Shown: positions 1 to 15,554 of the stretch, piece after piece
Layout of the letters: each line of letters opens with the position of its first letter
Numbering within the stretch: position 1 is the stretch's first letter
Source: a virus
Taxonomy: Duplodnaviria > Heunggongvirae > Uroviricota > Caudoviricetes
DNA: 17,312 bases
Virus record (IMG/VR): IMGVR_UViG_2531839532_000013
Location: 1 to 17,312 of that record
Direction: 5' to 3' (one strand)
Notes under the pieces: generated by a model
Database searches by the model: none
Told to the model about the DNA's origin: nothing
What the model saw: only the letters and a program-made list of their open reading frames with translations
Translations under genes and position numbers: made by a program

Positions 1-483
1 ATGACGAAGAAAAAAGCACATAAACCTGGTTCAGCGACCATCGCGCTTAACAAGCGCGCCCGTCACGAATACTTTATCGAAGAAGAGTTCGAAGCGGGAC
101 TTGCCCTGCAAGGCTGGGAAGTTAAATCCCTGCGCGCAGGAAAAGCCAATATCAGCGACAGCTACGTCCTTCTGCGTGACGGAGAGGCATTTCTGTTTGG
201 CGCTAACATCACGCCAATGGCCGTGGCCTCCACGCATGTGGTGTGCGATCCTACCCGTACCCGCAAGTTACTTCTCAACCAGCGCGAACTGGACTCATTG
301 TACGGTCGCGTCAATCGAGAAGGCTATACCGTAGTGGCGCTCTCCCTGTACTGGAAAAATGCCTGGTGCAAAGTGAAAATCGGCGTCGCCAAAGGTAAGA
401 AACAGCACGATAAACGTTCAGATATCAAAGAGCGCGAATGGCAGGTGGATAAAGCACGTATCATGAAAAACGCCCACCGTTAA
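1..483 (+). CDS. smpB: SsrA-binding protein SmpB (trans-translation cofactor), complete 160 aa
   Basis: Full ORF starting with ATG at window position 1; the translated protein is recognisably enterobacterial SmpB; it sits immediately upstream of tmRNA, the conserved smpB-ssrA arrangement. Confidence 0.95.
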
Positions 484-671
484 ACCTGCACTCCAATTAT
501 TGACCAGTTCCTCACCGCGCCTCCCTCTCCGGCGGCGCGAATGAACATCTTATTGGCTATCACATCCGACACAAATGTTGCCATCCCATTGCTTAATCGA
601 ATAAAAATCAGGCTACATGGGTGCTAAATCTTTAACGATAACGCCATTGAGGCTGGTCATGGCGCTCATAA

Positions 672-683
672 ATCTGGTATACT
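672..683 (+). promoter_or_regulatory. Candidate ssrA promoter, extended -10 element (TGnTATACT) about 14 nt upstream of the mature tmRNA 5' end
   Basis: Sequence ctggtatact at 674-683 gives TG 675-676 and TATACT 678-683; no good -35 found, consistent with an extended -10 promoter. Position relative to the mature 5' end implies a short precursor leader. Inference only. Confidence 0.35.
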
Positions 684-697
684 TACCTTTACACATT

Positions 698-1060
698 GGG
701 GCTGATTCTGGATTCGACGGGATTTGCGAAACCCAAGGTGCATGCCGAGGGGCGGTTGGCCTCGTAAAAAGCCGCAAAAAATAGTCGCAAACGACGAAAA
801 CTACGCTTTAGCAGCTTAATAACCTGCTTAGAGCCCTCTCTCCCTAGCCTCCGCTCTTAGGACGGGGATCAAGAGAGGTCAAACCCAAAAGAGATCGCGT
901 GGAAGCCCTGCCTGGGGTTGAAGCGTTAAAACTTAATCAGGCTAGTTTGTTAGTGGCGTGTCCGTCCGCAGCTGGCAAGCGAATGTAAAGACTGACTAAG
1001 CATGTAGTACCGAGGATGTAGGAATTTCGGACGCGGGTTCAACTCCCGCCAGCTCCACCA
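698..1060 (+). ncRNA. ssrA: tmRNA (SsrA, 10Sa RNA), 363 nt, ending in CCA
   Basis: Starts GGGGCTGATTCTGGATTCGACGGG (tRNA-like acceptor 5' half), contains the tag-encoding frame, ends GGTTCAACTCCCGCCAGCTCCACCA (T-arm and acceptor 3' half); matches E. coli tmRNA as I recall it. Confidence 0.95.
787..819 (+). other. tmRNA internal tag reading frame (resume codon GCA to TAA) encoding ANDENYALAA
   Basis: GCA AAC GAC GAA AAC TAC GCT TTA GCA GCT TAA read directly at 787-819 inside ssrA. Confidence 0.9.
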
Positions 1061-1070
1061 AATAAATCAA

Positions 1071-1103
1071 GGGGTTACGTGAAAGCGTAGCCCCTTTTTC
1101 TTT
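1071..1103 (+). terminator. Rho-independent terminator of ssrA
   Basis: Stem GGGGTTACG (1071-1079) / CGTAGCCCC (1086-1094) with one G-U pair, loop TGAAAG, followed by TTTTTCTTT (1095-1103). Confidence 0.7.
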
Positions 1104-1203
1104 GGTAGTGGCGGCAAAATGGCGACAGACTTTTGCGTCCATCTTGCCTGTCGCCATCTTGAAATCATGCAAAGAGGTTTCACATGGAAGAACTTCACTT
1201 TGT

Positions 1204-2541
1204 TTACATCAATGCAAATGGTCGTATCTCCAGCACGCGCTGGATGGTTCCCATCGCATCCTTCGTCATCTGCTTTTCAATCACTTCAGGATTGAGTTTC
1301 AGCAGATTCATCCCTTCAAAGAAACTCTTGCTTTGCATGGTGGCAATGGACAATTCACGCACCATCGCGTTTGCTGCACTGGCTGCAACCTCTGGCGCAG
1401 CGCCCAGTGTCAGGAAGGTGGAACCCAGCGCCGCCGCTTTACGATAATCCAGACGGTCAGCCACACCGCCCAGACGTTGCATCACATCAATGATGTCTGC
1501 CCCTTTCGACATGGCGTTATCATCCAGATAGTTCAGCGCATCGCCGAGCTGTTCAATATTGCGGGTAGGTATTTTGTAGAGCTGGGCGATTTTCCCCAGA
1601 CTTTCTGACAGTTCATCCGCTGGCAGCTCAAAGGCTGTGGCCGCCTTTGCTGCCGTACTGGCGAAGGCCAGCAGGTCACGTTTCTGGTCTTCCCAGCTGT
1701 CGTCAGGGTTTGCGACGTTCATGCGCGCACCACCTTCAACCAGTGCAGCGAAATCCACCGCACCGTTTTCCATCGGCAACTGTTCGCTGGCAGCCTTGAT
1801 GGCATCCTGCATTTCATAAAAACGTGCAGTGCGGTTGCCATTATCGTCACGCAGGCCATTGACCTGCTTTGCCACACCTTTCATGGCATCTTCCATGCTG
1901 GTATAGCTTTTTACTGCCACCATCACTGGTGCGCCCATTGCCAGCCCTGCAGCCGTGGTGGTGGCTCCGGCACCTGCAATACGATCACGCACCTCCAGCG
2001 AACGGGCATAACTGGCACGCGCTGCATTCATCCTGCGCTGAGCTTCCCCCAGTCGCTTCAGCCGCGCCTCCTGTTTCGAAAGTTCCTGGTTATAACGTGA
2101 TGTTTCACGGGCTAAACGGGCAGTTGCTCCCGCATCGTCTTTCGCAGAAATTCCCGCCCGGTACAGTTCAGCACGCACAAGCGCCGTCTGCTGCTGCAGC
2201 TTTTTCTGGCGTTCTTCCAGGCGCTGAACAGCCAGCCGTTGACGGCCCAGAGCAACAACCTGACGTTGCGAAGGCGGCCCCATCGCTCCCAGTTCCTGAC
2301 TGAGCAAATTTGCACGCTGGCGGGCATAGTTCAGCCTGTCGCCTAATTTCTGATTTTCTGCCTGCAGCTTTCGGAAGCTGTCCAGACTGCTCCCGGCCTG
2401 ATCAAGCTGCTTTATTGCATCGCGGGATTTTTTGACAGCAGCAGCCAGTTCTCTTGAACTGGCCTGCGCAGATCGAAATGGGCGGGTGAGCTTGTCAACC
2501 GCATTAAGAATGACCTGCAGACGCAGGTTGTTATCACTCAT
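1204..2541 (-). pseudogene. Tail tape-measure protein (P2 gpT-like), N-terminal 445-aa fragment, C-terminally truncated
   Basis: ATG at 2541 overlaps the stop of the upstream -1 frame extension (ATGAGTGA), the P2 E'/T arrangement. N-terminal coiled-coil region rich in Q/R/A/L followed by a tape-measure-core-like segment (KAAALGSTFLTLGAAPEVAASAANAMVRELSIATMQ). The ORF stops at 445 aa, about 140 bp from the ssrA terminator, whereas P2-type tape measures are roughly twice that length. Confidence 0.65.
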
Positions 2542-2713
2542 CGTTGGCCCCGCTTCTCTGAATCGCTTTATACCGCCATTCCAGCACTTCGGTCAGCGGC
2601 ATAACGTCAGTAACGGATGGCGGCCAGTGAAAAATGGTGGCGATATCTGCCACCAGATCGTCAACCGTCAGGCTGTCGGAAAACCGGCAAGCACCGACTT
2701 CTTCAACAAAAAA
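2534..2713 (-). CDS. gpE' -1 frame extension (E+E' frameshift product), open from the slippery site to a TGA overlapping the tape-measure ATG
   Basis: Hand translation of the -1 frame from the heptamer (minus strand, 2713 to 2707) gives 57 sense codons (VEEVGACRFSDSLTVDDLVADIATIFHWPPSVTDVMPLTEVLEWRYKAIQRSGANDE) ending at TGA 2536-2534, which overlaps the T-fragment ATG at 2541-2539. Confidence 0.55.
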   Translation of the reverse strand, partial: FFVEEVGACRFSDSLTVDDLVADIATIFHWPPSVTDVMPLTEVLEWRYKAIQRSGANDE

Positions 2714-2892
2714 GTGACAACCTCAACCGACATGGCAGTGAGATCTGCCGGGTCCATCTCTGCAATTTCCTGTGCAGTCAGTGCCGGACTGGAGATGCGG
2801 GGGATCACGGTCATCATCGCGTTTACATCCATACCGCCTGTTGCACGCTGGCGGTAGTCCTGGCGGCTGTCTTCATGGCTCAGCTTGTCCAC
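2668..2892 (-). CDS. Tail assembly chaperone gpE-like ORF (possibly 5'-truncated); zero-frame product of the E/E' frameshift pair
   Basis: Small ORF immediately upstream of the tape-measure start on the same strand; contains slippery heptamer T TTT TTG twelve codons before its stop. The ORF-track start at 2892 is GTG; first ATG is at 2832. Assignment is by position and frameshift architecture, not by sequence identity. Confidence 0.5.
   Translation of the reverse strand: MDKLSHEDSRQDYRQRATGGMDVNAMMTVIPRISSPALTAQEIAEMDPADLTAMSVEVVTFLLKKSVLAGFPTA
2707..2713 (-). other. Programmed -1 ribosomal frameshift slippery heptamer TTTTTTG (X XXY YYZ form)
   Basis: Plus-strand caaaaaa at 2707-2713 reads T TTT TTG on the minus strand, in frame as ACT TTT TTG within the gpE-like ORF; the same heptamer is used by the P2 E/E' tail chaperone genes as I recall. 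Confidence 0.55.
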
Positions 2893-3617
2893 CTCAGCTG
2901 TGCCTGCAGGGCTGTCTCCAGCTCAGACAGGCGTTCTTCCTGTTCAGACAGGGATTTTTCGGTGCGCGCACTCAGGTTTTGCTGCTCAGTGGCAACCAGC
3001 TCCACGGCCTTATGCACATCAGAGAACCGGGCATCATCGGACTGCTCTTTTTTGGTGAACAGCGCCGTGACACGGGCAAACAGGGATGGTTTTTCGTCCT
3101 GGACTTCTTCCAGTTCGATCACCGTTTCCTCTGCAGCGGTAAAAAGATTGGCGGGATTCTGCTTGCGGTTTGCCAGCGGGTTATGGGCTGCACTGGCGCT
3201 GAATGTCAGCATTTCCGTACCCAGACTGGCGGGATCATCAGTGGCGGCCAGGCCAACCAGGTAGGCTTTGCCCGTATCAGCGAACTTCGGGCTGACTTCC
3301 ATAGAGGTGAATAATTTCTGGCCTTTTTTCACCAGTTCCACCAAGGACTCCGTTGGCTCAACGTCGGCATACAGCGCCATCTTGCCTGCCAGCGGACCTT
3401 CCGTGATTTCTTCAGCAAACAGCGCCGTCACCTTGCCGTAGCGGTTAAAGGTGCTGTCCGGAAGATAAGACTTGATGTGCTCAAGGTTAATCAGCGCGGT
3501 ATACACCGCCGGGTTGTAGCTGGCTGCCATCTGTTCCAGCCATTCACGCTGGATTTCACGTCCGTCGGTAGTGGCACCTTCCACCCCGATGCGAAAACGC
3601 TTTGCTTTCACTGTCAT
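2880..3617 (-). CDS. O: Capsid scaffolding protein gpO (P2 family), 245 aa; C-terminus probably altered by a deletion junction
   Basis: ATG at 3617 with GGAG upstream; protein shows the gpO pattern (RIGVEGATTDGREI..., INLEHIKSYLPD..., KAYLVGLAATDDPASLGTEMLTF, SDDARFSDVHKAVE). It is shorter than I recall for P2 gpO and ends in LRWTS directly overlapping the gpE-like ORF. Confidence 0.8.
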   Translation of the reverse strand: MTVKAKRFRIGVEGATTDGREIQREWLEQMAASYNPAVYTALINLEHIKSYLPDSTFNRYGKVTALFAEEITEGPLAGKMALYADVEPTESLVELVKKGQKLFTSMEVSPKFADTGKAYLVGLAATDDPASLGTEMLTFSASAAHNPLANRKQNPANLFTAAEETVIELEEVQDEKPSLFARVTALFTKKEQSDDARFSDVHKAVELVATEQQNLSARTEKSLSEQEERLSELETALQAQLRWTS

Positions 3618-3695
3618 GAGCCGTGCTCCGTTAGAAAAAACTTACTGGAGCCTTATGGTTGCGGTGATGGGGGCAGTGAAACAATGCGCGGTATT

Positions 3696-3713
3696 TGTAC
3701 CGACAACCACACA
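3696..3713. promoter_or_regulatory. TGT-N12-ACA dyad, the Ogr/B-type late-activator binding site of P2/186 late promoters, in the divergent O/P intergenic region
   Basis: TGT at 3696-3698, 12-nt spacer accgacaaccac, ACA at 3711-3713; centre lies about 87 nt upstream of the O start codon and 55 nt upstream of the P start codon. Confidence 0.45.
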
Positions 3714-3759
3714 AACCGCAGGCGGGGAAAGCCTTCATTCAAGGCTGTAGGTTTGTGCC

Positions 3760-5526
3760 ATGAACACCACACTGACACCCGCAGATCTCGATCCCCGTCG
3801 GCAGGCCATGCTGCTGTACTTTCAGGGATACCGCGTAGCCCGCATTGCTGAAATGCTGGGCGAGAAAGTTGCAACCGTTCACAGCTGGAAAAAACGCGAC
3901 AAGTGGGGTGACTATGGGCCGCTGGATCAGATGCAGCTCACCACCGCCGCACGCTACTGCCAGCTCATTATGAAGGAGCACAAAGAAGGGAAAGATTTCA
4001 AAGAGATTGACCTGCTGGCGCGCCAGTCGGAGCGCCACGCGCGGATCGGCAAGTTTAACAATGGCGGCAACGAAGCCGACTTAAACCCTAACGTCGCCAA
4101 CCGCAACAAAGGCCCGCGCCGTCAGCCGGAAAAGAATGTTTTCACCGATGAGCAGATTGAGAAGCTGGAAGAAATCTTCCATTCCTCCATGTTCAACTAC
4201 CAGCGCCACTGGTGGGAAGCCGGAAAAGCCAACCGCATCCGCAACCTGCTGAAGTCACGCCAGATCGGCGCGACCTTTTACTTTGCCCGTGAAGCCCTGA
4301 TTGACGCCCTGCTTACCGGACGTAACCAGATTTTCCTTTCCGCCAGCAAGGCACAGGCCCACGTCTTTAAGCAGTACATCATCGACTTCGCCAAAGAAGT
4401 GGAGGTGGAGTTGAAAGGCGATCCGATGGTGCTTCCTAACGGGGCCACGCTTTACTTCCTCGGCACCAATGCCCGCACTGCCCAGAGTTATCACGGCAAC
4501 CTGTATCTGGATGAATATTTCTGGATACCGAAATTCCAGGAGCTGCGCAAAGTGGCTTCCGGTATGGCTATTCACAAAAAATGGCGACAAACCTATTTTT
4601 CCACGCCATCCAGCCTGACTCACAGTGCTTATCCGTTCTGGTCCGGTGCGCTGTTCAATCGTGGGCGCAACAAAGCCGATAAGGTGGACATCGACCTGTC
4701 CCACAGCAATCTGGCCCCCGGCCTGCTGTGCGCAGACGGGCAGTACCGCCAGATAGTCACTGTGGAAGATGCGGTGCGCGGCGGCTGTAACCTGTTCGAC
4801 CTCGACCAGTTGCGCATGGAGTACAGCCCGGACGAATACCAGAACCTGCTGATGTGCGAGTTTGTGGACGATCTCGCGTCCGTGTTTCCGCTCAGCGAGC
4901 TGCAGGCGTGCATGGTGGACAGTTGGGAAGTCTGGACCGACTTTCATGCTCTGGCCCTGCGCCCGTTTGGCTGGCGCGAAGTGTGGATCGGTTATGACCC
5001 GGCAAAAGGTACGCAGAACGGCGACAGCGCCGGATGCGTGGTGGTGGCACCGCCAGCCGTGCCGGGCGGTAAGTTTCGCATTCTTGAGCGTCACCAGTGG
5101 CGCGGGATGGACTTCCGCGCCCAGGCTGACGCAATCAAAAAACTGACCGAGCAGTACAACGTGACCTACATCGGCATCGACTCAACCGGCGTTGGTCACG
5201 GGGTTTACGAGAACGTGAAAGCGTTCTTTCCTGCCGTCCGGGAGTTTGTCTACAACCCCAACGTTAAAAACGCCCTGGTACTCAAGGCCTACGACATTAT
5301 CAGCCACCGCCGTCTGGAGTTTGACGCCGGACATACCGACATTGCGCAGTCATTTATGGCAATCCGTCGCGCCACCACCGCCAGTGGCAACCGCCCGACC
5401 TATGAAGCCAGCCGCAGCGAAGAAGCCAGCCACGCCGATCTGGCATGGGCAACAATGCACGCACTGTTTAACGAACCGCTGCAGGGCGAATCCGCCAATA
5501 CCAGCAATATTGTGGAGATTTTTTGA
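3760..5526 (+). CDS. P: Terminase large (ATPase/nuclease) subunit gpP, 588 aa
   Basis: ATG at 3760; strong resemblance to P2 gpP throughout (QAMLLYFQGYRVARIAEMLGEKVATVHSWKKRDKW, KSRQIGATFYFAREALIDALLTGRNQIFLSASKAQAHVFKQYII, WIGYDPAKG...DSAGCVVVAPP); stop TGA overlaps the Q start. Confidence 0.92.
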   Translation: MNTTLTPADLDPRRQAMLLYFQGYRVARIAEMLGEKVATVHSWKKRDKWGDYGPLDQMQLTTAARYCQLIMKEHKEGKDFKEIDLLARQSERHARIGKFNNGGNEADLNPNVANRNKGPRRQPEKNVFTDEQIEKLEEIFHSSMFNYQRHWWEAGKANRIRNLLKSRQIGATFYFAREALIDALLTGRNQIFLSASKAQAHVFKQYIIDFAKEVEVELKGDPMVLPNGATLYFLGTNARTAQSYHGNLYLDEYFWIPKFQELRKVASGMAIHKKWRQTYFSTPSSLTHSAYPFWSGALFNRGRNKADKVDIDLSHSNLAPGLLCADGQYRQIVTVEDAVRGGCNLFDLDQLRMEYSPDEYQNLLMCEFVDDLASVFPLSELQACMVDSWEVWTDFHALALRPFGWREVWIGYDPAKGTQNGDSAGCVVVAPPAVPGGKFRILERHQWRGMDFRAQADAIKKLTEQYNVTYIGIDSTGVGHGVYENVKAFFPAVREFVYNPNVKNALVLKAYDIISHRRLEFDAGHTDIAQSFMAIRRATTASGNRPTYEASRSEEASHADLAWATMHALFNEPLQGESANTSNIVEIF

Positions 5527-6566
5527 TGGGAAAGAGTAAGAAGAACCGAGCTGCGGCGACGAAACAGATCCAGCTTAAAAGTCAAACTACAGCCGAAGCA
5601 TTCAGCTTCGGCGATCCCGTTCCTGTTCTGGACCGCCGTGAACTGCTGGACTATGTGGAATGCGTACAGATGGACCGTTGGTATGAGCCGCCCGTCAGCT
5701 TTGACGGACTGGCGCGCACCTTCCGCGCCGCCGTGCATCACAGTTCCCCGATTGCAGTAAAGTGCAACATTCTGACCAGTACCTATATCCCTCATCCGCT
5801 GCTCAGCCAGCAGGCTTTTTCGCGTTTTGTGCAGGACTATCTGGTATTTGGTAACGCCTACCTGGAGAAACGCACGAACCGATTCGGTGAAGTTATCGCC
5901 CTTGAGCCTGCGCTGGCAAAATACACCCGACGCGGGTTAGACCTGGATACCTACTGGTTTGTGCAATACGGTATGACAACCCAGCCGTATCAGTTCACGA
6001 AAGGCAGCATTTTTCATCTAATGGAACCGGATATTAATCAGGAGATCTACGGCCTGCCCGGTTATCTTTCTGCAATTCCGTCTGCCCTGCTCAACGAGTC
6101 CGCCACGCTGTTCCGTCGAAAGTATTACATTAACGGCAGTCATGCAGGCTTCATCATGTACATGACCGATGCCGCGCAAAACCAGGAGGATGTGAACAAC
6201 CTCCGCAATGCGATGAAAAGCGCCAAAGGACCAGGTAACTTCCGCAATCTGTTTATGTACTCGCCTAACGGCAAAAAGGACGGGCTTCAGATCATCCCGT
6301 TGTCAGAAGTCGCGGCGAAGGATGAGTTTCTGAATATCAAGAACGTGAGCCGGGACGACATGATGGCAGCACACCGAGTGCCGCCGCAGATGATGGGGAT
6401 TATGCCTAATAATGTAGGGGGGTTTGGGGATGTGGAGAAAGCCAGCCGGGTATTTGTTCGGAATGAACTGATGCCTTTACAAAAACGCATTGCCGAAATT
6501 AATGAATGGTTAGATGAAGAGGTAGTCAAATTTGAATATTATGGCTTAGAAAATAATCAGTCATAA
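5526..6566 (+). CDS. Q: Portal vertex protein gpQ
   Basis: ATG at 5526 overlaps the P stop (TTGATGG); the ORF-track start at 5523 is a TTG. Co-oriented with and coupled to gpP and divergent from gpO, as in P2. Confidence 0.85.
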   Translation: MGKSKKNRAAATKQIQLKSQTTAEAFSFGDPVPVLDRRELLDYVECVQMDRWYEPPVSFDGLARTFRAAVHHSSPIAVKCNILTSTYIPHPLLSQQAFSRFVQDYLVFGNAYLEKRTNRFGEVIALEPALAKYTRRGLDLDTYWFVQYGMTTQPYQFTKGSIFHLMEPDINQEIYGLPGYLSAIPSALLNESATLFRRKYYINGSHAGFIMYMTDAAQNQEDVNNLRNAMKSAKGPGNFRNLFMYSPNGKKDGLQIIPLSEVAAKDEFLNIKNVSRDDMMAAHRVPPQMMGIMPNNVGGFGDVEKASRVFVRNELMPLQKRIAEINEWLDEEVVKFEYYGLENNQS

Positions 6567-6572
6567 AAAAGA

Positions 6573-6605
6573 AGTGAACAAGTTGAAATTATCAGCTTGT
6601 TCACT
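6573..6605. terminator. Bidirectional rho-independent terminator between convergent Q and the Q-cos cargo genes
   Basis: Perfect 10-bp stem AGTGAACAAG (6573-6582) / CTTGTTCACT (6596-6605) with a 13-nt loop; A6 run upstream on the plus strand (a U-run for the minus strand) and a weak T-rich tract downstream. Confidence 0.65.
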
Positions 6606-6621
6606 ATTATCTGTATTATCT

Positions 6622-6891
6622 CTACTGCATCCGTCCGGGTAAATCGCTTTCATTGCGTAAACGCCAAGCTAACTGTTCACGATCCCAAACTATATCGTCT
6701 TTGCTAGCCTTTCTAAAATTTGCTAGCACAGTACTGCTTATAGCGTAATTACCATTCTCATTAGTTTTGATGAACTCGTCCCCAAAGTCATTGATTAGAA
6801 ATTCAACAACCTCGGACTGATACAACACACCATTAGAACGAGTGGTATTAACCATCCAGTCAACTATTTTTATCAGAGAATCATTCATCAT
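6622..6891 (-). CDS. Hypothetical protein, about 88 aa, unrecognised; second gene of an overlapping two-gene cargo unit
   Basis: ORF-track start at 6912 is TTG; tandem ATG codons at 6891 and 6888 preceded by GAGAG. The start overlaps the stop of the upstream gene by 11 nt (minus-strand ATGATGAATGA). Visibly AT-rich relative to the phage core. Confidence 0.55.
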   Translation of the reverse strand: MMNDSLIKIVDWMVNTTRSNGVLYQSEVVEFLINDFGDEFIKTNENGNYAISSTVLANFRKASKDDIVWDREQLAWRLRNESDLPGRMQ

Positions 6892-7090
6892 CACTCTCAG
6901 CTTTTGGAACAAATAAAACTAGAGTATCTTCATGAAAAACTCCGCGCTGGTTCTTAGCACCAATAAACCACGTACAAACTGCCATTGTAGCCGATTGGTA
7001 GTGATCAATTACCATGATTGGACCATGTCCTGTTGCATGTTTTACTTTCTGGCCCGGTGTATATTTTGCCACTCTCACGTCTCCTTTCAT
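6881..7090 (-). CDS. Small DUF2158 / YodC-like protein, 69 aa
   Basis: ATG at 7090; an AAGGAG motif inside the first codons precedes in-frame GTG codons, so the true start may be a few codons later. Sequence pattern (GDVRV...GHGPIMVIDH...CTWF...GVFHEDTLVLF) fits the small YodC/DUF2158 family as I recall it. Confidence 0.6.
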   Translation of the reverse strand: MKGDVRVAKYTPGQKVKHATGHGPIMVIDHYQSATMAVCTWFIGAKNQRGVFHEDTLVLFVPKAESDDE

Positions 7091-7151
7091 GTGTAAGTTA
7101 TCAATTTCAGAATATATCTACATTAATTGCAAGTAAACATGTTTGCGCGCG

Positions 7152-7170
7152 CTCGTATCCCCGCCACGCC
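7152..7170. other. Candidate cos (cohesive end) site of the P2/186 family
   Basis: CTCGTATCCCCGCCACGCC at 7152-7170 matches the reverse complement of the 186-type 19-nt cohesive end as I remember it at about 15 of 19 positions, including the CCCCGCCACGCC core; it lies between Q and the A side, where cos sits in P2. Confidence 0.45.
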
Positions 7171-7215
7171 TGCCCGCTTTATGTAGTGGTTTTCATGCAG
7201 GAGCATGATCTACGC

Positions 7216-7239
7216 AAAAGCCCGCCAGTTCTGGCGGGC
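7216..7239 (-). terminator. Terminator-like GC hairpin with U-run on the minus strand, just beside the cos candidate
   Basis: Stem GCCCGCCA (7220-7227) / TGGCGGGC (7232-7239), loop GTTC; plus-strand AAAA at 7216-7219 gives a U-run after the hairpin on the minus strand. Confidence 0.4.
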
Positions 7240-7512
7240 CTTAGCAAAAACGATCCTCAAACGATCATGCAATCTCATGCAGCATAGACATGCACAGACG
7301 AGTAAAGCGAATCGGACTTTACGCAAGGTGAACTCCTCAGCGGGCATAATCAGTATGTCGGAAGATCTCTAAAAATAAATAATTCGGTTAACAGGTATGC
7401 TTACAAAAGCATATATTTGATTAAAAATCATGTAAGGGGGAGGATCTCAAACTGAATCGCCACGGGTTTTACAAATTTCGATAGTCTCTCTAACGTTTCG
7501 GCTGAGGTCAAA

Positions 7513-7938
7513 ATGAAAAGCTTTTACGTATTAATTTTAATTCTGGTTGCAAGCTTTGTTAGCGTCCCAGTTCAGGCGGTAACAGCTAAAAACTATGAGA
7601 AAGGAACTAAAGCTCAACAGAAATCAATATCTTACCTTTCATGTGCATTCTATGGCAGTAGCACACAATTAGATCCTAGCTACACGGAGCAAGTACCTAC
7701 AGCCGATATCAAGATATTACAGAAAGCAGCTTACCACGCTTACAACGATGCGCTCTCATACTTTGGCTATGAGGAACCAGATCACGAACAACGCATAATT
7801 GATTATGCTGAATTTGTGGCGTCGCAAGAAGCTGTGTTATGGGATAAGCCGGGAATGAATGGAAAGCAGGTAACACTAATTGCTCGTTCTCTCTACAATG
7901 AGAGTAACTGTAACTTGTTACTGGACTCAATTAAGTAG
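7513..7938 (+). CDS. Hypothetical secreted (signal-peptide) protein, 141 aa; AT-rich cargo gene
   Basis: ATG at 7513 with GAGG 8 nt upstream; N-terminus MKSFYVLILILVASFVSVPVQA has basic-hydrophobic-AxA signal-peptide form; no family recognised; visibly AT-rich block. Confidence 0.65.
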   Translation: MKSFYVLILILVASFVSVPVQAVTAKNYEKGTKAQQKSISYLSCAFYGSSTQLDPSYTEQVPTADIKILQKAAYHAYNDALSYFGYEEPDHEQRIIDYAEFVASQEAVLWDKPGMNGKQVTLIARSLYNESNCNLLLDSIK

Positions 7939-8097
7939 GAAAAAGATGGTATTTTGCCCGTAGTTTCAACCTTAATCTCCGAACCTGTCGCAGAACGGGC
8001 GTTCACTCATCAAATAAACGCCACACCTAACGCCTCACTGTACTCGTTGTTCAACCTTGCTGACGCCAGAACCAAGTTCAGACGCCAGCAACTTTTC

Positions 8098-8331
8098 TTA
8101 ATGCAGCCAGCTGTCGTCTTCCCACACCTTCTGCATAATCTTCATCACTTGTTTTCTTTCTTCGTCCAGTTGCAGTCCGGTCAGTTCCACACCGTTAGAG
8201 CTACCTTTGCGGATGCGAATTACCGTTTTGGGATACAGGGGGCGCAGATTGCGGTAAAGCTCGGATTCAAGGGCGTCCAGGGGAGACTGGCTAATCTTCT
8301 GCTCTTTATCGATCATTATTTCAATGCGCAT
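8098..8331 (-). CDS. DinI-family protein (SOS-associated RecA modulator family), 77 aa from the internal ATG
   Basis: From ATG 8331 (GAGGGG upstream) the protein MRIEIMIDKEQKISQSPLDALESELYRNL...KQVMKIMQKVWEDDSWLH aligns by eye along its whole length with E. coli DinI. The longer ORF-track start at 8403 overlaps the upstream gene and is probably not used. Confidence 0.8.
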   Translation of the reverse strand: MRIEIMIDKEQKISQSPLDALESELYRNLRPLYPKTVIRIRKGSSNGVELTGLQLDEERKQVMKIMQKVWEDDSWLH

Positions 8332-8341
8332 AAAGGTCCCC

Positions 8342-8530
8342 TCAGCTGATGACATCCATTGAGCGGTTGTATTCGTGGGTTCTGATTTTTGCCATGAGTT
8401 CATCTGTCAGTTCAGAAACCCACTGCAAAGCCAGCCCCTTCTCTTCATCACTACACTCACTAGCCGCTACAAGCTTAAGAAAAAAATCAATGCGCTGGAG
8501 CTTCAAAGACTCCAAAAAATAGTCCTGCAT
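8342..8530 (-). CDS. Small hypothetical protein, 62 aa; possible Tum-like antirepressor N-terminal module
   Basis: ATG at 8530 preceded by AGGAGG; lies directly upstream of the DinI-like gene and downstream of a LexA box. The longer track ORF from 8632 has no comparable ribosome-binding site. Function is inferred from context only. Confidence 0.5.
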   Translation of the reverse strand: MQDYFLESLKLQRIDFFLKLVAASECSDEEKGLALQWVSELTDELMAKIRTHEYNRSMDVIS

Positions 8531-8571
8531 CTTTCCTCCTATGACACCACAAGCAATACTGTATACATAAC

Positions 8572-8591
8572 CACTGTTTATATTTACAGTA
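8572..8591. promoter_or_regulatory. LexA operator (SOS box), CTGT-N8-ACAG, upstream of the small-protein/DinI-like gene pair
   Basis: CACTGTTTATATTTACAGTA at 8572-8591 with CTGT 8574-8577 and ACAG 8586-8589; an additional half-site-like TACTGTATACATA at 8557-8569; located 42-61 nt upstream of the ATG at 8530. Confidence 0.7.
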
Positions 8592-8683
8592 TATAATAAT
8601 CTTACTGATGTAAAACGTTTTTTTACGTTCATTAGCCTGATATGCCTGGTATTATTAAGAGCACGAATTGTTAACCCGCGTAA

Positions 8684-11098
8684 TTAATACAGGTTTCGCC
8701 ACTTATCATCTTCCTGCAAACGCTGGTTCCGATAGAAGATACGCAGGCCTGCTCCTGACGGAATACTGCCGCCGCGAAGGAGTAAATCGACCTCTTTCTC
8801 GCTGCCATTAAATCCTCTGGACTTCAGTTCATAGACTAGCTGCTGTCGCTGATGGTCTGTAATTCGCTGTTTGTAGTCTTTACGCCGTTTCGGTTTCACC
8901 AGGCGTAACCTTGCAGCCAGTTCCCGGCGCTCTTTTTTGCTCATACTGTGCAGGTAATCGTGCAACTCCTTGTCATCCATGCGGGTAATGTCCGTCCTGG
9001 TATCCCCATCAGCTGATTTGTCTTTCCCTTGTTGGTTCAAATTTTCAGCAAGGGGACAGTTATTGCCACGAGTCCAAGGGGCGCAAGCGCCCTGGTCGGC
9101 TGCCGCCTCCTGAACGTCAACGGCTTTACGAACCATTTTCCACTTCACTGCATGAGTGCAGATCTTGCCCTCTGCAATGGGTGACCAGATGCCATAAATA
9201 CGAATACCGTGATCGCCATAGGCGGTCGGCTCTTCGTTGATTTCATAAGCGGTTCTGATGAGGTGATATTTACGGGGAACCAGTACGCCGCCCTGCTTCA
9301 TGATGTAGGTAGCAAAACAACCAGCATCAGCAGCAGCCAGAATGGCATCAAGACGCGGGTTATCCAGTACCGGCGCACCTGCTTTTTTGTCACCCTGTTG
9401 CCTTGCCACCTGACCAGCCAGCAAGCGAAGTTCACGGTAAGCCTGACGTCCCGGAATACCAAAGAAGCGGAATTGCTGTACACGATGCAGAGACGCCCAG
9501 GCATTAACGTATTCAGCGTTATCACGCAAGGATTTACCCGTTTCCTTACTGATCTCGCCAGCCAGACCACGCCCGTCAATGTTCTTACTGATGTATTTCG
9601 CGATGTAGCTTGTCGGCGTTCCTTTGCGCGGGTTTATCAGCTCAGACTTAAAGCGTGGCTCCGTGTTATTGCCCAGCTCCTCGCGGTCTTCACGGATGGC
9701 AAACTTACGCAGTAATGCAGTGATGGCGCGGCGGTCTTTTTTGCGCATGAAACACAATAGGTGCCAGTGAACGGTGCCGTCATGATGAGGCTCAGCCACC
9801 CGCACGCCATACCAGCGCAACCCGGCTTTATGCATAGCCTTACGAAATGCAGCAAACATGCCGACCAGATAATCGCTGCTTTGTCTTACCGTCGCATTTG
9901 TCCAGGTCGGGTTGGGCCTGCCGTTATTTAGCGTGGAATGGAAACGTGACGGACAGGTGATGGTGTAGAAAACGGCGCAGTCACCGCGCATTTCCGCGAT
10001 AAGCTCCAGACCTTTAACACAGGCCATCATCTCATTGCGGCGATGCGCAGGGTTGCTGCTGCTGGCGTTTACCACATCCTCCATGTCCAGTGTGTCGCCG
10101 TCTTCGTTCACCAGTTCATGAGAACGGAAAAACTCCAGTGACTTGCGGCGCTGCTCACGTTTATGCATCACGGCTTCATAGCTAACATAGGGAGATGCTT
10201 TTTTGCTGACCAGGCAGACAGCACGCAACTGCTCTTCCCGCCATTCGCAACGCATCTTCCATAATTTCCGATACCACCAGTCGGCGCACAACATACGCGC
10301 CAGCGAACCCGGAATGAGTTCATAGGGCACGGGTTTGCGGCGGTTTCTTTTCCGACGAAGTTGCTCAAACGCAGGCGGTATGACATCCAGTCGCAGGGTT
10401 TCCGCTGCTACCTTTTCCCATGTCTTGCGGATTTCTTCTGGCTTAACATCATCGGTGGCATACAAATCGCCACAAGCGGCATCAAGGCACATGCTCATAT
10501 GCGCAGCTACCAGGGTGGACAGGCGTTTTACCTGATCCTGACTCATTTCAGGCAGAATCAGCAGGCCGTCCAGCCCTTCATGGCTTGCCATAAAGCGAAA
10601 AGAAGTGGATAGCTGACTGTCGCGTACATGCTCCAGCCGTTCCAGACATGGCTTAATCGTCTTACGCAAATAGCGGGAATAAGCCTTTGGCCTGCCCAGT
10701 CTGCTGAAGTATTCAATACGTTGCATCAGCGGCTTGCTGATATGGGAAGGCTGGGCGTTAACGTCCGCCAGAATGACCATGTCTGGATTAAAACGCTGCT
10801 GCTCATGCGCCAGCTTTGCCCGGCTAATAAGCTTATCCTGCTCCATTTCGCGTTGGACAGGATCACGGGATTCATTAAAGAAATAACGCTCCCAGACCTG
10901 ATCACTCAGTGCCTCGCGGCGCAGCTGTTCCTGCTCGTTATCGGTAGCGTACAGAGTGATCAGGTTTGAAAGCGCAGAAACCGGCGCAACTTCCGCCGGG
11001 TCCAGATAAGGGTTAATAGCCTTTTTCGGGCTGTTCCATGAGAATGCTGCGGCGACCTCGTTAACGCCGCTGCAGTTGTTCATATCGGCATGACTCAT
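8684..11098 (-). CDS. A: Replication initiation endonuclease gpA (rolling-circle initiator), 804 aa
   Basis: ATG at 11098 overlaps the Dam stop (minus-strand ATGA); HUH-type motif within [10 protein letters not shown]; size and position at the end of the early operon match P2 gpA / 186 A. Confidence 0.85.
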
Positions 11099-11952
11099 GC
11101 ACGTACTCCGTACACGGCAGAACTATCCACGCCACGCGAATAATCAAATCCCACCCAGCAGCGCGGCCCGGAAACAGCAATGATTTCTGTTGCTGATTTA
11201 CCCTCGCCAGCTGCCACACCGATGCTGCGTTTTACCTTGATATAGTGGTGAGTAAAATTGCGATACAGCGAACGGATCAGGGATGTGTCACTGTTAGAAA
11301 CAATGACCGGATGTCCTTCTGATGACCGATGTTCAAGAACGGATGCAAGGTGATACTGGTCATCTTCAGTGAAACCGTCAGTGTGATAACCGGAAAACGT
11401 ACCGTCATACGGCGGATCGCAATACACCACATCCCCCGCCTTCAACATCGCCAGCGTTTCATCAAAGCTGGCGCAGATAAACGTTGCCCGCTGGGCTTTT
11501 TCTGCAAATGCGCGAATTTCTTTTTCAGGGAAATACGGATTTTTATAATTACCGTAGGGAATGTTGAAATGCCCGCTCTTGTTATAGCGACATAAACCAC
11601 GGTAACCGTGACGATTGAGATACAGGAAATATACCGCTTTCATGAAATCAGTAATTTCAGTTGAGTAATTAAACTCCTGCCTTATGTTGTAATAAGCCAC
11701 CTCCCTGTTTGCGATCTCAAATAAAACTCTGGCGCGAGATATAAATGATTCACAATCAGCAGCAACCTTTTTATAGAGGTTGATTAAATCAGGATTAATA
11801 TCCGCAACAAGATAGCTGGGGTACTCCGTCTCCATCATCACTGCACAGGAACCCGCGAAAGGTTCAACCAGTCGCGGGCCAGCAGGAAGGTGTTTTTTCA
11901 GTTCGGACATAATTGCGGTTTTATTTCCCGCCCATTTCAGGATGGTGCTCAT
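11095..11952 (-). CDS. DNA adenine methyltransferase (Dam family), about 285 aa
   Basis: ATG at 11952 with GGAGG upstream (track start 12012 is TTG); N-terminal LKWAGNK, AdoMet-binding-like EPFAGS, and catalytic DPPY motif; an unusual C-terminal tail reaches the A start. Confidence 0.85.
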
Positions 11953-12176
11953 ACAGCACCTCCGTTGTAATGTTTGCCTTTCAGCTCTGCGATTTCCTGA
12001 CAGGTAATGCAAAGCTGCACTCCAGGAATGGCGCGGCGGCGTGCTGGCGGAATTGGCACTTCACATTCAATGCAAAGCACGCGAGACACGCCCGGTGTTT
12101 TGGCACGGGCAGCACGAATATGGCGCTGGCGTTCTTCTTCAACGCGCTGCTGTACGAGATCCATTGCATCAGCCAT
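11949..12176 (-). CDS. TraR/DksA-type C4 zinc-finger protein, 75 aa
   Basis: CxxC-N17-CxxC (CIECEVPIPPARRRAIPGVQLCITC); start ATG overlaps the upstream stop (TAATG) and its stop overlaps the Dam ATG (ATGA). Confidence 0.7.
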   Translation of the reverse strand: MADAMDLVQQRVEEERQRHIRAARAKTPGVSRVLCIECEVPIPPARRRAIPGVQLCITCQEIAELKGKHYNGGAV

Positions 12177-12409
12177 TAGTGGATCTCCTGCGCTTCGTTC
12201 TGGATTGCTTCAGCGGTCACACGCAGCAGTTCTGCCGCTTCGACGTGGTTTAGCTGGCGGGATGTGATATGACACGCAAGACTATCAAGGCGGGCAGCCA
12301 TTGCTTCAGCCCTTGCCCGGCGTTCTTCCAGACGAGCCTCTGTCAGTAAAATATTTAGCCCTACGTCATCCGGTCCGGTTTTAGTCGTGAGGGTTTCAAT
12401 ATTACGCAT
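12176..12409 (-). CDS. Hypothetical early-operon protein, about 77 aa
   Basis: ATG at 12409 preceded by AGGAG (track start 12415 is TTG); translationally coupled to the zinc-finger gene. Confidence 0.5.
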   Translation of the reverse strand: MRNIETLTTKTGPDDVGLNILLTEARLEERRARAEAMAARLDSLACHITSRQLNHVEAAELLRVTAEAIQNEAQEIH

Positions 12410-12476
12410 AATCAATTCTCCTGAATTTAGATAAAGGGATGCCCGGCGGGTTTACGCCATTAATTTCATTAGCTGG

Positions 12477-12818
12477 TTAATTCGGCATGGTTAGCCGTCT
12501 GGGAAATAAGCTCACCACTGCACGAAAATGATTCATTGCTTTAATCAACTCCCGCTTTTCGTCAGTGGTCAGCTCATTAATGCTGATGCTATGACGTTCA
12601 GCTGGAATTTTTGCCATAAAGAATATGGCAGCCAGTGCCCGTTTATTTTGTTCGCTATTAATATCCCGTGGATCACGCATATCTTTAATAAACCGTTCAA
12701 GCTCTGACTCAATATTAAGACCAAAAACTTTCGCCCTTAACTCCGCAATATGATTAAGTCCATTCAGGCGTTCACCGGGGCTTAATGGAACAGTCGCCGC
12801 AGCGCCTTCAATAGCCAT
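12477..12818 (-). CDS. Hypothetical early-operon protein, 113 aa
   Basis: ATG at 12818 preceded by GGGGGA; same strand and operon as the flanking early genes. Confidence 0.55.
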   Translation of the reverse strand: MAIEGAAATVPLSPGERLNGLNHIAELRAKVFGLNIESELERFIKDMRDPRDINSEQNKRALAAIFFMAKIPAERHSISINELTTDEKRELIKAMNHFRAVVSLFPRRLTMPN

Positions 12819-12982
12819 TTGTTCCCCCGTTTTTTCGTAGATAGTTCTGCCAGCAATTCATCTTGTGAACGGCACGGATGCCAGCGTTTACCATCCTCAC
12901 CCATGATCCAGCCGTGACCGTAGTGCATTGCCGGGCTTTGTTTAACCAGCAGCGATGCAAATGATGGTTCTTTCGTAAGCAT
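12782..12982 (-). CDS. Hypothetical small early protein, about 66 aa
   Basis: ATG at 12982 preceded by GAGGTG, 7 nt after the CII-like stop; overlaps the next gene's start by 37 nt. Confidence 0.4.
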   Translation of the reverse strand: MLTKEPSFASLLVKQSPAMHYGHGWIMGEDGKRWHPCRSQDELLAELSTKKRGNKWLLKALRRLFH

Positions 12983-12989
12983 AAGCACC

Positions 12990-13499
12990 TCACAGCAAAC
13001 CGAATGAAGCACCGAGGCCAGTCACGGTATCAACTGCACTCGCCATCGCAGGGTTAGCCTGTAAACGGGCCTGCAGTGAAACAGCAGCCAGCGCCATCAG
13101 TCGTGTTACAGAGTTAATGCTGCTGATAGCATCACGACGACCTGCACTGGTTTTTACATCGCCAGATACCGCACCTGCAGCAACACGCCCGATCTCTGCG
13201 GTTGCACTCATGACGTAATGCGGCAGTTTCTCTTTTGCTACCTCATTAATCGGTACACATGGCAGGCAGTGAATCTGTGCCAGAAAACCATCTATCAGCG
13301 TTGAATCTTCAGTCAGATCGGTAAGCAGCCAGATTTCTGGCGCATTGAGCTGATGCGGTTGATCTGGGTTGAGTTTGTTTCGCAGAGTCTGGACATTCAT
13401 TCCTGCACGTTCTGCCAGCTTCGCCATATTGTGACGAAGTGCAAAAGCTCTACAGGCTTCATCAAAATGCGGGTGTTTGGAAATCTTATAATCAAACAT
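12990..13499 (-). CDS. CII-like transcriptional activator (phage 186 CII-like), 169 aa
   Basis: ATG at 13499 preceded by AGGGGG; second gene of the leftward early operon after the Cox/Apl-like gene; HTH-like segment; strong resemblance to 186 CII as I recall it (MFD...SKHPH.DEACRAFA.RHNMAKLAE.AGMNVQTLRNKLNP...). Confidence 0.6.
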   Translation of the reverse strand: MFDYKISKHPHFDEACRAFALRHNMAKLAERAGMNVQTLRNKLNPDQPHQLNAPEIWLLTDLTEDSTLIDGFLAQIHCLPCVPINEVAKEKLPHYVMSATAEIGRVAAGAVSGDVKTSAGRRDAISSINSVTRLMALAAVSLQARLQANPAMASAVDTVTGLGASFGLL

Positions 13500-13531
13500 G
13501 CTACCCCCTTAGAAAGTTCTCATAATTGAAC

Positions 13532-13774
13532 TCACTTACCAACAATGACGCGGAAGTTGGAATGACCGAGGGATTCACGGACCTGATCGGTTTTGTACAT
13601 TAAATAACGCAGACTTACGCGGCCTTTGTTTTTTTCTTTCTTGACCATGTATTTAGCAAGCTGACCATGGTGAATTTTTTGATACACGGAGCCGCGGGAG
13701 ATACCTTCCCATTCCGCGAACTCTGCAGGCGTAGCCATCTCTTTTGGTACACGAATTGAAATATCAGTGCTCAT
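13532..13774 (-). CDS. Cox/Apl-like excisionase / early transcriptional regulator, 80 aa
   Basis: ATG at 13774 preceded by GGGAG; first gene of the lytic operon, facing the repressor gene; HTH-like segment. Confidence 0.6.
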   Translation of the reverse strand: MSTDISIRVPKEMATPAEFAEWEGISRGSVYQKIHHGQLAKYMVKKEKNKGRVSLRYLMYKTDQVRESLGHSNFRVIVGK

Positions 13775-13809
13775 AGTGCAGTATCTCCCGATTAAGGTTT
13801 GGTTTACGT

Positions 13810-13876
13810 CGTTTTATCTCGTTTTACTTGATTCAATATTTGATACATAGAGATACTACGATCCAATATTTGATAC
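13810..13876. promoter_or_regulatory. Immunity-region operator candidates: two 13-bp direct repeats CAATATTTGATAC and tandem CGTTTTA repeats
   Basis: CAATATTTGATAC at 13834-13846 and 13864-13876 (30-bp spacing), overlapping the spacer and downstream side of the leftward promoter; CGTTTTA at 13810-13816 and 13820-13826. Confidence 0.5.
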
Positions 13877-13881
13877 GTCAA
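13853..13881 (-). promoter_or_regulatory. Strong sigma70 early lytic promoter (leftward): -35 TTGACG, 17-nt spacer, -10 TAGTAT
   Basis: On the minus strand TTGACG (plus 13876-13881), spacer TATCAAATATTGGATCG, TAGTAT (plus 13853-13858); drives the Cox/Apl-like to A operon. Confidence 0.55.
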
Positions 13882-13893
13882 CAGGATTAAAAA

Positions 13894-14526
13894 ATGATAC
13901 AGGTAAAGGCTGGAGAGAATACAGGGGGAAGAGAGGCTATCCATAGACTAATGGCAGCCTATGATTTCAAGTCCAGACAGCAACTTTGCGATCACTTAGG
14001 CGCATCAAAAAGCACCATGGCAAACAGATACTTAAGAGATAGTTTTCCTGCAGAGTGGGTGATTCAGTGCGCCTTGGAAACAGGAGTTTCTTTACTGTGG
14101 CTAACCACCGGACAGGGAGAGCCAGGTCCAAACATTAAACCTAAAAAAAATATCAATTCCGTGAACTCCAGCAAGGTTGTACCTCTTTCTGAACTAGTAT
14201 CTCCTGAAATTGACAAGGCGACTCTCAACGGTGGTTTATTGGTCGATGCTGGAAAAGCAATCATTGATAGCAGCATACTCCCCTCAGACTCAAGCAACCT
14301 ACTGCTGGTGACTACTTCTGGTGATTCTTATTTAATAGATCGCAACCAAACACCACCAGTAAATGGTATGTGGTTAGTCGATATCGACGGGATAAAAAGC
14401 ATTGTTAAATTGACTCGGCTCCCGGGAAACAAATTAGTAGTGCATCAGGATGATTCATCGTTTGAGTGCGGTCTGGATGACATTGAGGTAGTAGGCCGCG
14501 CACTGAAAATCATTAAGAGCCTTTGA
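13894..14526 (+). CDS. CI-type immunity repressor (phage 186 CI-like), 210 aa
   Basis: ATG at 13894 with AGGA upstream; N-terminal HTH region (...STMANRYLRDSFPAEWVIQCALETGVSLLWLTTGQGEP) resembles 186 CI; immediately upstream of and co-oriented with int. Confidence 0.75.
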   Translation: MIQVKAGENTGGREAIHRLMAAYDFKSRQQLCDHLGASKSTMANRYLRDSFPAEWVIQCALETGVSLLWLTTGQGEPGPNIKPKKNINSVNSSKVVPLSELVSPEIDKATLNGGLLVDAGKAIIDSSILPSDSSNLLLVTTSGDSYLIDRNQTPPVNGMWLVDIDGIKSIVKLTRLPGNKLVVHQDDSSFECGLDDIEVVGRALKIIKSL

Positions 14527-14527
14527 T

Positions 14528-15541: not shown

Positions 15542-15554
15542 AACAGCCAAAATT

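Follow-up and report, generated by a model that had tools for sequence, protein, structure and literature searches.

The gpQ-gpA locus of P2 is a hotspot rich in anti-phage cargo (Rousset et al. 2022, PMC9122126). Table S5A of that survey enters the protein WP_000834899 as "hypothetical", beside varying neighbours. The gene for this protein, here called ORF141 (an open reading frame, or ORF, of 141 codons), is the subject of the present analysis. It is carried on a stretch of DNA that comprises positions 1 to 17,312 of IMG/VR virus record IMGVR_UViG_2531839532_000013, assigned to the Caudoviricetes and referred to below as the window. It is well supported that ORF141 is a horizontally acquired, self-contained cargo gene (a "moron") in the Q-A hotspot. 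To judge from sequence comparison, the copy in the cos slot is the orphaned, surviving distal gene of a two-gene donor cassette, and the gene has been captured independently by several kinds of temperate elements.

Of the P2 cargo proteins known from this interval, Old is a cytoplasmic nuclease/ATPase and Tin is a cytoplasmic poison of single-stranded DNA-binding protein. Spackle, from phage T4, inhibits the tail lysozyme gp5 of incoming phages and blocks superinfection. The Vibrio phage K139, a member of the Peduoviridae, encodes Glo, a 137-residue "periplasmic protein; involved in phage exclusion" (PMC4870250). Few proteins of this kind are known: Spackle, Sim, Glo and a recently described HXS effector (PMC13128918).

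ORF141 (7513-7938, plus strand, starting MKSFYVLILILVASFVSVPVQA) lies in a foreign, low-GC (guanine plus cytosine) cargo block of 731 bp (7296-8026) that is an insertion relative to P2-like relatives without it. The block is delimited by phage vB_EcoM-813R9, which aligns to the window at 7143-7295 and 8027-8800; since only 7 bp separate them in the phage genome, the intervening 7296-8026 is cargo, and the insertion is exact. Fels-2 aligns to 7137-7293 and 8100-8800 and has an unrelated gene of 243 residues in between, and the block is present in Klebsiella prophages. The GC content of the block is 40.8%, and that of third codon positions (GC3) in ORF141 is 0.39, compared with 52-55% GC and a GC3 of 0.57-0.71 in the core genes P, Q and A. 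The order at the locus is Q (5523-6566), cos (7156-7170), ORF141 and gpA (8684-11098), which places ORF141 on the gpA side of cos.

A first-pass annotation, made from the letters of the window, had described a signal-peptide protein on the opposite strand to its neighbours, in an AT-rich block that started at 7291 and lay between cos and a set of SOS-controlled genes. This description proved accurate: the low GC content of the block agrees with it, the proposed start misses the actual left boundary of the insertion by no more than 5 bp, and minus-strand genes at 6622-7090 and 8098-8530 flank the plus-strand ORF141. The cos core, GGCGTGGCGGGGATA (minus strand), occurs once, with none expected in shuffled sequence, and its flank is conserved across P2-like phages. 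On the other side, a perfect LexA box, CTGTTTATATTTACAG (8574-8589, no mismatches), stands ahead of an operon of a 62-residue ORF and a DinI-family gene. The same annotation took ORF141 for an independently acquired cargo gene at a P2-type accessory locus, which is upheld by its presence/absence polymorphism, sharp junctions and deviant GC and by the hotspot described in PMC9122126.

The block is found at an identity of at least 99% in 101 of 5,426 complete Escherichia coli genomes (1.9%), and about 390 further genomes match at the conserved flank alone. Carriers include human, bovine, porcine and avian isolates. IMG/VR holds 31 copies, with the portal gene Q upstream in 29 and DinI downstream in 28. 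The order is gpQ, then ORF141, DinI, the 62-residue ORF and gpA, and the gap from Q to ORF141 ranges from about 0.95 to 3.4 kb, which shows that the Q-side cargo changes while ORF141 stays fixed. P2-like prophages of Klebsiella aerogenes have an orthologue (90% identity) in this slot, where AIPR, nSTAND or DUF4325 genes are its neighbours. Presence of the gene at this locus in related prophages, a point raised in the first-pass annotation, is thereby confirmed by the IMG/VR copies and the Klebsiella orthologue, and the gene is absent from vB_EcoM-813R9.

None of the 31 IMG/VR loci or the 101 complete genomes has a disrupted reading frame. The ratio of nonsynonymous to synonymous substitution rates (dN/dS) is 0.18-0.21 against the Klebsiella and Hafnia orthologues, at synonymous divergence (dS) of up to 0.76, which indicates that the frame is under purifying selection. 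An antisense ORF of 73 residues (7709-7930), inside this selected gene and lacking independent support, was taken as spurious.

A Shine-Dalgarno sequence, GAGG, can be read at 7504-7507, 5 nt before the ATG. The signal peptide and its cleavage site were judged by rules covering charge, Kyte-Doolittle hydropathy, the -3 and -1 residues and the lipobox. The n-region has a single basic residue, K2, followed by an uninterrupted hydrophobic core at residues 5-18; the most hydrophobic ten-residue segment begins at residue 6 and scores 3.26, and no hydrophobic segment occurs past residue 25 (15-residue maximum, 0.89). With V at -3 and A at -1 of the 22/23 site and no lipobox, the Sec signal peptide claimed by the first-pass annotation passes these rules, with a predicted cut at VQA/VT; 22 residues (7513-7578) would be removed. 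A signal-peptide-like N-terminus is kept in 16 of 16 diverged homologues, down to 24% identity, with an A-x-A-type site around residues 17-22. The product is thus predicted to be exported by Sec, cut by signal peptidase I after Ala22 and periplasmic. One homologue, P0005 from Enterobacter roggenkampii (locus L011, 8001-8378), differs in having LSAC, a lipobox-like sequence, where the others have the A-x-A site, and in a truncated C-terminus that lacks the second of two conserved cysteines; this copy is possibly a lipoprotein variant, or else it is decaying.

The predicted periplasmic domain (7579-7935) would have 119 residues, a mass of 13.4 kDa and an isoelectric point of 5.06. It contains C44, which is invariant in the family, and C133, which is present in every full-length member, both at equivalent mature positions in the 16 homologues, whose mature domains have these two cysteines and no others. 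A C44-C133 disulfide probably staples the domain, and the combination of a conserved signal peptide with paired cysteines is what a periplasmic protein oxidised by DsbA would look like. Structure prediction with AlphaFold2 gave a confident model (mean predicted local distance difference test, pLDDT, 82.5; predicted template modelling score, pTM, 0.73) in which the mature domain is all-helical, with five helices at residues 25-50, 63-84, 91-109, 117-130 and 133-140. The first 20 or so residues are of low confidence, with pLDDT below 50 for residues 5-19. The invariant positions of the family are C44, W110, Y41, Y128, N132, C133, A99 and A107, and the most conserved surface stretch, DYAEFVASQEAVLWDKPGMN, lies on helix 4 and the loop after it. 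Since the invariant residues (Cys, Trp, Tyr, Ala) look structural rather than catalytic, the protein would be a stoichiometric periplasmic binder and not an enzyme.

The statement of the first-pass annotation that the protein belongs to no recognisable family stands for Pfam and NCBIfam, but not for PHROGs: ORF141 matches phrog_7437 over its full length (E 4e-99), and distant homologues match it at E 3e-8 to 3e-25. This family has no assigned function, so membership tells nothing about mechanism. Neither ORF141 nor any of the 16 family members gave a significant match in Pfam, NCBIfam or PADLOC scans, and a profile search of PDB sequences returned no match at E up to 10; nor did ORF141 match any known fold. 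The searches also found no homologue among characterised housekeeping periplasmic proteins, which the first-pass annotation had named as a finding that would count against its proposal.

The origin of the gene is revealed by its upstream context in other genera. In Hafnia, a 77%-identical orthologue lies 20 nt downstream of a 215-residue ORF (TM215), and the corresponding arrangement in K. aerogenes and Scandinavium is a 219-residue ORF followed after 74 nt by a homologue of 30-34% identity. The two upstream proteins are themselves homologous (29% identity over 187 residues, E 3e-17). In the window, a pseudogenised stub on the plus strand at 7407-7490 corresponds to the last 28 or so codons of a TM215-type gene, interrupted by stop codons. 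It translates as KHIFD, a stop, KSCKGEDLKLNRHGFYKFR and a second stop, while the Hafnia partner ends in KHTFDYKSGKWEDLKPWEFYRFRDAL and its stop codon. In a tblastn search against the window, the two match at 57% identity over 28 residues (E 0.007), and the P2-like loci of Klebsiella have the same stub (64% over 28 residues). The presence of this stub upstream of ORF141 is what indicates that the cos-slot copy derives from a two-gene donor.

The N-terminus of the partner has two hydrophobic helices separated by a loop with a charge of +4 in all three known homologues, and the net charge after the second transmembrane (TM) helix is +3, -1 and +1. By the positive-inside rule, the C-terminal part of about 165 residues should be periplasmic. 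The partner has only two relatives in the databases, giving three lineages in 5.8 billion proteins. It has no match in Pfam or PADLOC, no informative PHROG match and no toxin domain, and PADLOC-DB 2.0 contains no family for ORF141 or for either of its two partner homologues. Tblastn searches of phage and plasmid collections with the partner gave no matches, and its AlphaFold model is poor and uninformative (pLDDT 50). Downstream of the third partner homologue (40% identity) there is an unrelated, tail-anchored ORF of 163 residues instead, so the linkage is not obligate. The partner is also absent beside most ORF141 homologues, including those in lambdoid, plasmid and other contexts.

Two of the cassette-bearing loci have further features. 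The Hafnia alvei P2-like prophage has the full cassette in the "orf30" slot between S and V (L002, 7333-9640), showing that the gene is not confined to one P2 cargo slot. Next after the cassette comes a PD-(D/E)XK/NucS-like protein of 338 residues, a match (E 8e-110) to PDC-S11, a candidate system in PADLOC. In the integrase element shared by K. aerogenes (L013, 6267-8635) and Scandinavium lactucae (L062, 5255-7623), the 219-residue two-TM protein heads an operon-like array of signal-peptide proteins of 131, 116, 157 and 141 residues, none of which belongs to a Pfam family. The 157-residue protein is a weak ORF141-family paralogue that ends in YSDKNCDLLK (hidden Markov model, HMM, E 1e-5 in a small search); a weak TrbK match to this paralogue (E 0.024) falls over the signal-peptide region and was dismissed. 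The array has the appearance of grouped genes for periplasmic immunity or exclusion proteins.

The family as a whole is small, consisting of about two dozen small clusters, as gathered from 5.8 billion clustered proteins and an HMM search of 1.84 billion representatives. The latter search was exhaustive and gave 17 matches, of which 14 are true members; the three weakest are long, repetitive proteins that aligned in several short stretches and were rejected. Named members all come from Enterobacterales (Escherichia, Klebsiella, Hafnia, Enterobacter, Citrobacter, Salmonella, Siccibacter, Rahnella and Scandinavium). Two scans of the species-representative genomes of GTDB found a single relative, a distant copy in the same element as that of K. 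aerogenes. Tblastn searches of 50,697 phage records with full and mature ORF141 gave no match at E 0.01, with only noise up to E 10.

All contexts examined are mobile elements. Besides the second P2 slot in Hafnia, they include one end of a lambdoid prophage, behind its tail-fibre genes; integrase islands beside eco; another prophage end with T5orf172, UmuDC and DinI genes; a Salmonella plasmid rich in mer genes and insertion sequences; and phage-plasmid-like, non-mobilisable IncFIB replicons of about 105-116 kb with phage genes. Nucleotide homology to the window begins at 7406 in Hafnia, 7482 in the lambdoid prophage and 7589 in Enterobacter, and these different starting points argue for separate capture events. 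Since the gene was captured alone in several of these elements, it must work alone. On the E. coli plasmid NZ_CP010244 (L063; IncFIB, 113 kb), a distant homologue stands alone on the strand opposite to its neighbours, adjoining a DUF4942 gene and about 3 kb from a gene for an LprI-family lysozyme inhibitor.

Expression of ORF141 from its own signals in a lysogen is plausible. A candidate σ70 promoter, TTAACA-18-TATATT (7388-7417, plus strand), matches the consensus at 10 of 12 positions, with its -10 element inside the partner stub, and the orthologous Klebsiella loci have CTAACA-18-TATGTT at this site. Downstream, the only terminator-like element is a hairpin in the conserved flank just 3' of dinI (8057-8091), with a stability of -21 kcal/mol on the minus strand and -11.4 on the plus strand, where it is followed by CUUUUCUU; no significant structure was found at 7936-8030 and no terminator within the block. 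Transcription might also reach ORF141 by read-through from the P-Q late operon on the same strand.

What the protein does can be approached from its location and its predicted export, from which the first-pass annotation had proposed superinfection exclusion or lysogenic conversion. The reading favoured here, if tentatively, is superinfection exclusion at the level of the envelope. A lysogen would make the protein in its periplasm, where the mature domain would bind a component of the incoming phage, such as the tail-tip lysozyme, the ejection proteins or the tape measure; the target might alternatively be a periplasmic or inner-membrane factor of the host that the phage needs. Genome entry would then fail after adsorption, and ORF141 would resemble T4 Spackle, P1 Sim and K139 Glo in function, with an unrelated fold. 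Exclusion is favoured because the locus and its neighbours are dominated by anti-phage cargo, because the gene stands by itself in several phage types, and because Glo provides a precedent for a periplasmic exclusion protein in the P2 family. Also on its side are the constancy of ORF141 against the varying Q-side cargo in the 29 gpQ-bearing loci of the 31 from IMG/VR, and the PDC-S11 candidate defence gene adjoining the Hafnia copy. The sharp junctions, deviant GC, purifying selection, conserved signal peptide and cysteines and confident helical model are in keeping with it as well.

A number of observations weigh against exclusion. No PADLOC model and nothing in the 50,697 deposited phage genomes resembles ORF141. 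Alignment with hhalign gave a probability of 1.5% for K139 Glo and 0.7% for T4 Spackle, so that no homology is detectable with either; P1 Sim showed no similarity in the tblastn search of phage records, among which P1 was assumed, not checked, to be included. The promoter is a consensus match that does not rise above chance, with three such sites in the region compared with 3.4 expected in shuffled sequence. The hotspot also holds cargo unrelated to defence, such as partition systems and a cytolethal distending toxin (PMC9122126). Finally, the ancestral pairing with a membrane protein and the retained 3' stub fit an immunity or antidote gene about as well.

Such an orphan immunity gene is nearly as likely as exclusion, if still doubtful. 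The periplasmic domain of the partner would be harmful and ORF141 would be its cognate periplasmic inhibitor; the P2 copies would have lost the toxin and kept the inhibitor against the same effector when it comes from other elements or from adjacent cells, or against another toxin that acts in the periplasm. Orphan immunity genes preceded by a 3' remnant of their partner are classic in contact-dependent inhibition (CDI), Rhs and type VI secretion system (T6SS) loci. Here, homologous partners are found in two diverged lineages with matching divergence (29% between partners and 30-34% between ORF141 homologues), spaced tightly from ORF141 at 20 nt and 74 nt, and the stub is kept before an intact ORF141 in both E. 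coli and Klebsiella. The positive-inside rule puts the C-terminal domain of the partner in the periplasm, the K. aerogenes/Scandinavium element has its array of four small secreted proteins including a weak paralogue, and ORF141 itself is small, acidic and helical with a Cys pair. Immunity accounts better than exclusion for the partner, for the stub and for the arrays of secreted proteins. However, the partner has no recognisable toxin domain and models poorly, there is no secretion or delivery machinery nearby, the third partner homologue precedes the unrelated tail-anchored ORF, and only three partner lineages exist in 5.8 billion proteins.

A broader version of these ideas is that the two-TM protein of about 215 residues and ORF141 together form a previously unrecognised two-component envelope defence or conflict module of temperate enterobacterial phages, in which ORF141, with a fold not represented in the PDB, could by itself stop a phage genome from entering or counteract an effector acting in the periplasm. 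This is rather unlikely as a whole. If ORF141 alone does suffice, it would explain the repeated capture of the orphan by P2-like, lambdoid and plasmid-type prophages.

Less likely again is that ORF141 is a lysogenic-conversion factor outside conflict, that is, a periplasmic binder or chaperone that alters envelope physiology or host interaction, for example by making the cell more tolerant of stress or resistant to lysozyme or peptides of the host. HdeA, Spy and Ivy are periplasmic chaperones or inhibitors of this general sort, and ORF141 resembles them in a generic way only. The predicted export, the helical, non-enzymatic look and the conserved Cys pair would suit such a role, as would the lysozyme-inhibitor gene near the phage-plasmid-like homologue, the position of family copies at prophage ends, where classical conversion genes occur, and the range of human, bovine, porcine and avian carriers. 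However, no sequence or fold likeness to any such family was found, the gene has a sparse, scattered distribution (1.9% of complete E. coli genomes and few members per cluster), and the surrounding cargo is mostly of defence type. A passenger without current function, kept by recent acquisition and linkage to the conserved cos-dinI region, is improbable: the E. coli copies are at least 99% identical and have had little time to decay, the host prophage is itself a decaying remnant, the upstream partner is gone and the promoter evidence is weak, but dN/dS is about 0.2 across the E. coli, Klebsiella and Hafnia orthologues at dS up to 0.76, the frame is intact in 31 IMG/VR loci and 101 complete genomes, and distinct elements have captured the gene repeatedly and independently.

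The prophage around ORF141 is of the P2/186/Fels-2 type, integrated by ssrA. The window is 99.9% identical over its full length to E. coli strain 300709 (NZ_CP025903), from which it differs over 17.3 kb by 3 mismatches and a single 16-nt gap somewhere before 7300. It begins with smpB (1-483) and ssrA, the tmRNA gene (698-1060), which is the sole Rfam match in the window, and enters the prophage from this side; a search of the window for an att repeat of the 3' end of ssrA was negative. A partial tape-measure gene (1204-2541), gpE/E' and a partial gene for the scaffold gpO (2880-3617) stand side by side in 1204-3617 (RefSeq annotation). Deletion has reduced the prophage to a remnant without genes for the capsid, small terminase, lysis, baseplate, fibre, sheath or tube, and the adjacency of the partial tape-measure and gpO genes indicates that the capsid, lysis and most tail genes were lost. 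No virions can come from this element, although its regulatory and replication genes and its cargo have been retained.

The terminase gene P (3760-5526) and the portal gene Q form a plus-strand late operon. Beyond Q, two small overlapping genes on the minus strand (6622-7090) encode a DUF6953 protein (Pfam, E 6e-24) and a weak DUF2158-like match. Their GC content of 37.8% is also low, and they constitute another cargo unit, located on the Q side of cos. The pair has no PADLOC match, and relatives have AIPR, nSTAND, DUF4325, HIRAN or DUF262/DUF1524 genes in this slot; it may be a defence or toxin-antitoxin-like module. Between the cos core and ORF141, 50-90 bp off the core, a minus-strand hairpin at 7217-7245, GCCCGCCAG-NN-CTGGCGGGC followed by a U-run (UUUUGCG), is conserved in P2-like phages (-32.2 kcal/mol in its extended form, z = -4.58) and is probably a terminator of leftward transcription before cos.

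The convergent neighbour of ORF141 is the DinI-family gene (8098-8331, minus strand; Pfam DinI E 8e-22, with RefSeq in agreement), in an operon with the 62-residue ORF (8342-8530, minus strand; phrog_698). The LexA box sits between a TATA-rich stretch and this operon, which is consistent with an SOS-controlled module of the antirepressor type, as in 186/Fels-2-like phages. Klebsiella relatives keep the 62-residue ORF and have no dinI. On the far side, gpA (minus strand) is followed within the window by Dam, early genes, CI and the integrase. Directly beyond the integrase gene is an anti-phage dCTP deaminase gene (15555-17312, minus strand; PADLOC dCTPase E 3e-146) with 33% GC, which is cut by the window end. 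In NZ_CP025903, it is followed by a second integrase and then by island genes for NACHT, RelA/SpoT and ParB proteins; the second integrase and the further island genes suggest that tandem islands are present at ssrA.

The Q-A hotspot, the listing of the accession as hypothetical in the hotspot survey and phrog_7437 were already known. The literature found by accession and by topic contains no characterisation of the protein and no description of its origin as a cassette orphan or of its distribution over several kinds of elements, both of which are apparently new. The remnant state of the prophage, the orphaned cassette gene with its stub and the separate captures by other temperate elements also go beyond the first-pass annotation. 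Should ORF141 stop DNA from entering, or counteract an effector in the periplasm, it would perform with a new structure a task for which few proteins are known; if it is inert, it is an ordinary hypothetical moron. With carriers among clinical and livestock isolates and a share of about 2% of complete E. coli genomes, the gene could affect host range in phage therapy. With its family uncharacterised and without detectable relatives, ORF141 is a reasonable, not an exceptional, candidate for follow-up.

ORF141 shares features with several described systems. It is similar to periplasmic T6SS immunity proteins such as Tai4 in being small, helical and, by prediction, exported, and in lying downstream of a partner gene in some contexts, while a comparison on structural similarity and on effector or T6SS context found neither. 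The product of the T4 sp gene, annotated "spackle periplasmic", is likewise a small protein with a signal peptide. Like Glo, ORF141 is small and belongs to a temperate element of the P2 family, but the Glo gene is located in the int-cI lysogenic operon of K139 and not at cos. With the old and tin cargo of P2, ORF141 has in common the Q-A locus, presence/absence polymorphism, low GC and the status of an independent unit among collinear genes, although it lies on the A side of cos, whereas the bulk of the variable Q-A cargo is on the Q side. Unlike Old and Tin, it is predicted to be exported and has no enzymatic signature. Almost all of the characterised cargo of the P2/P4 cos hotspot is cytoplasmic, and a soluble periplasmic cargo protein would add a layer at the level of the envelope.

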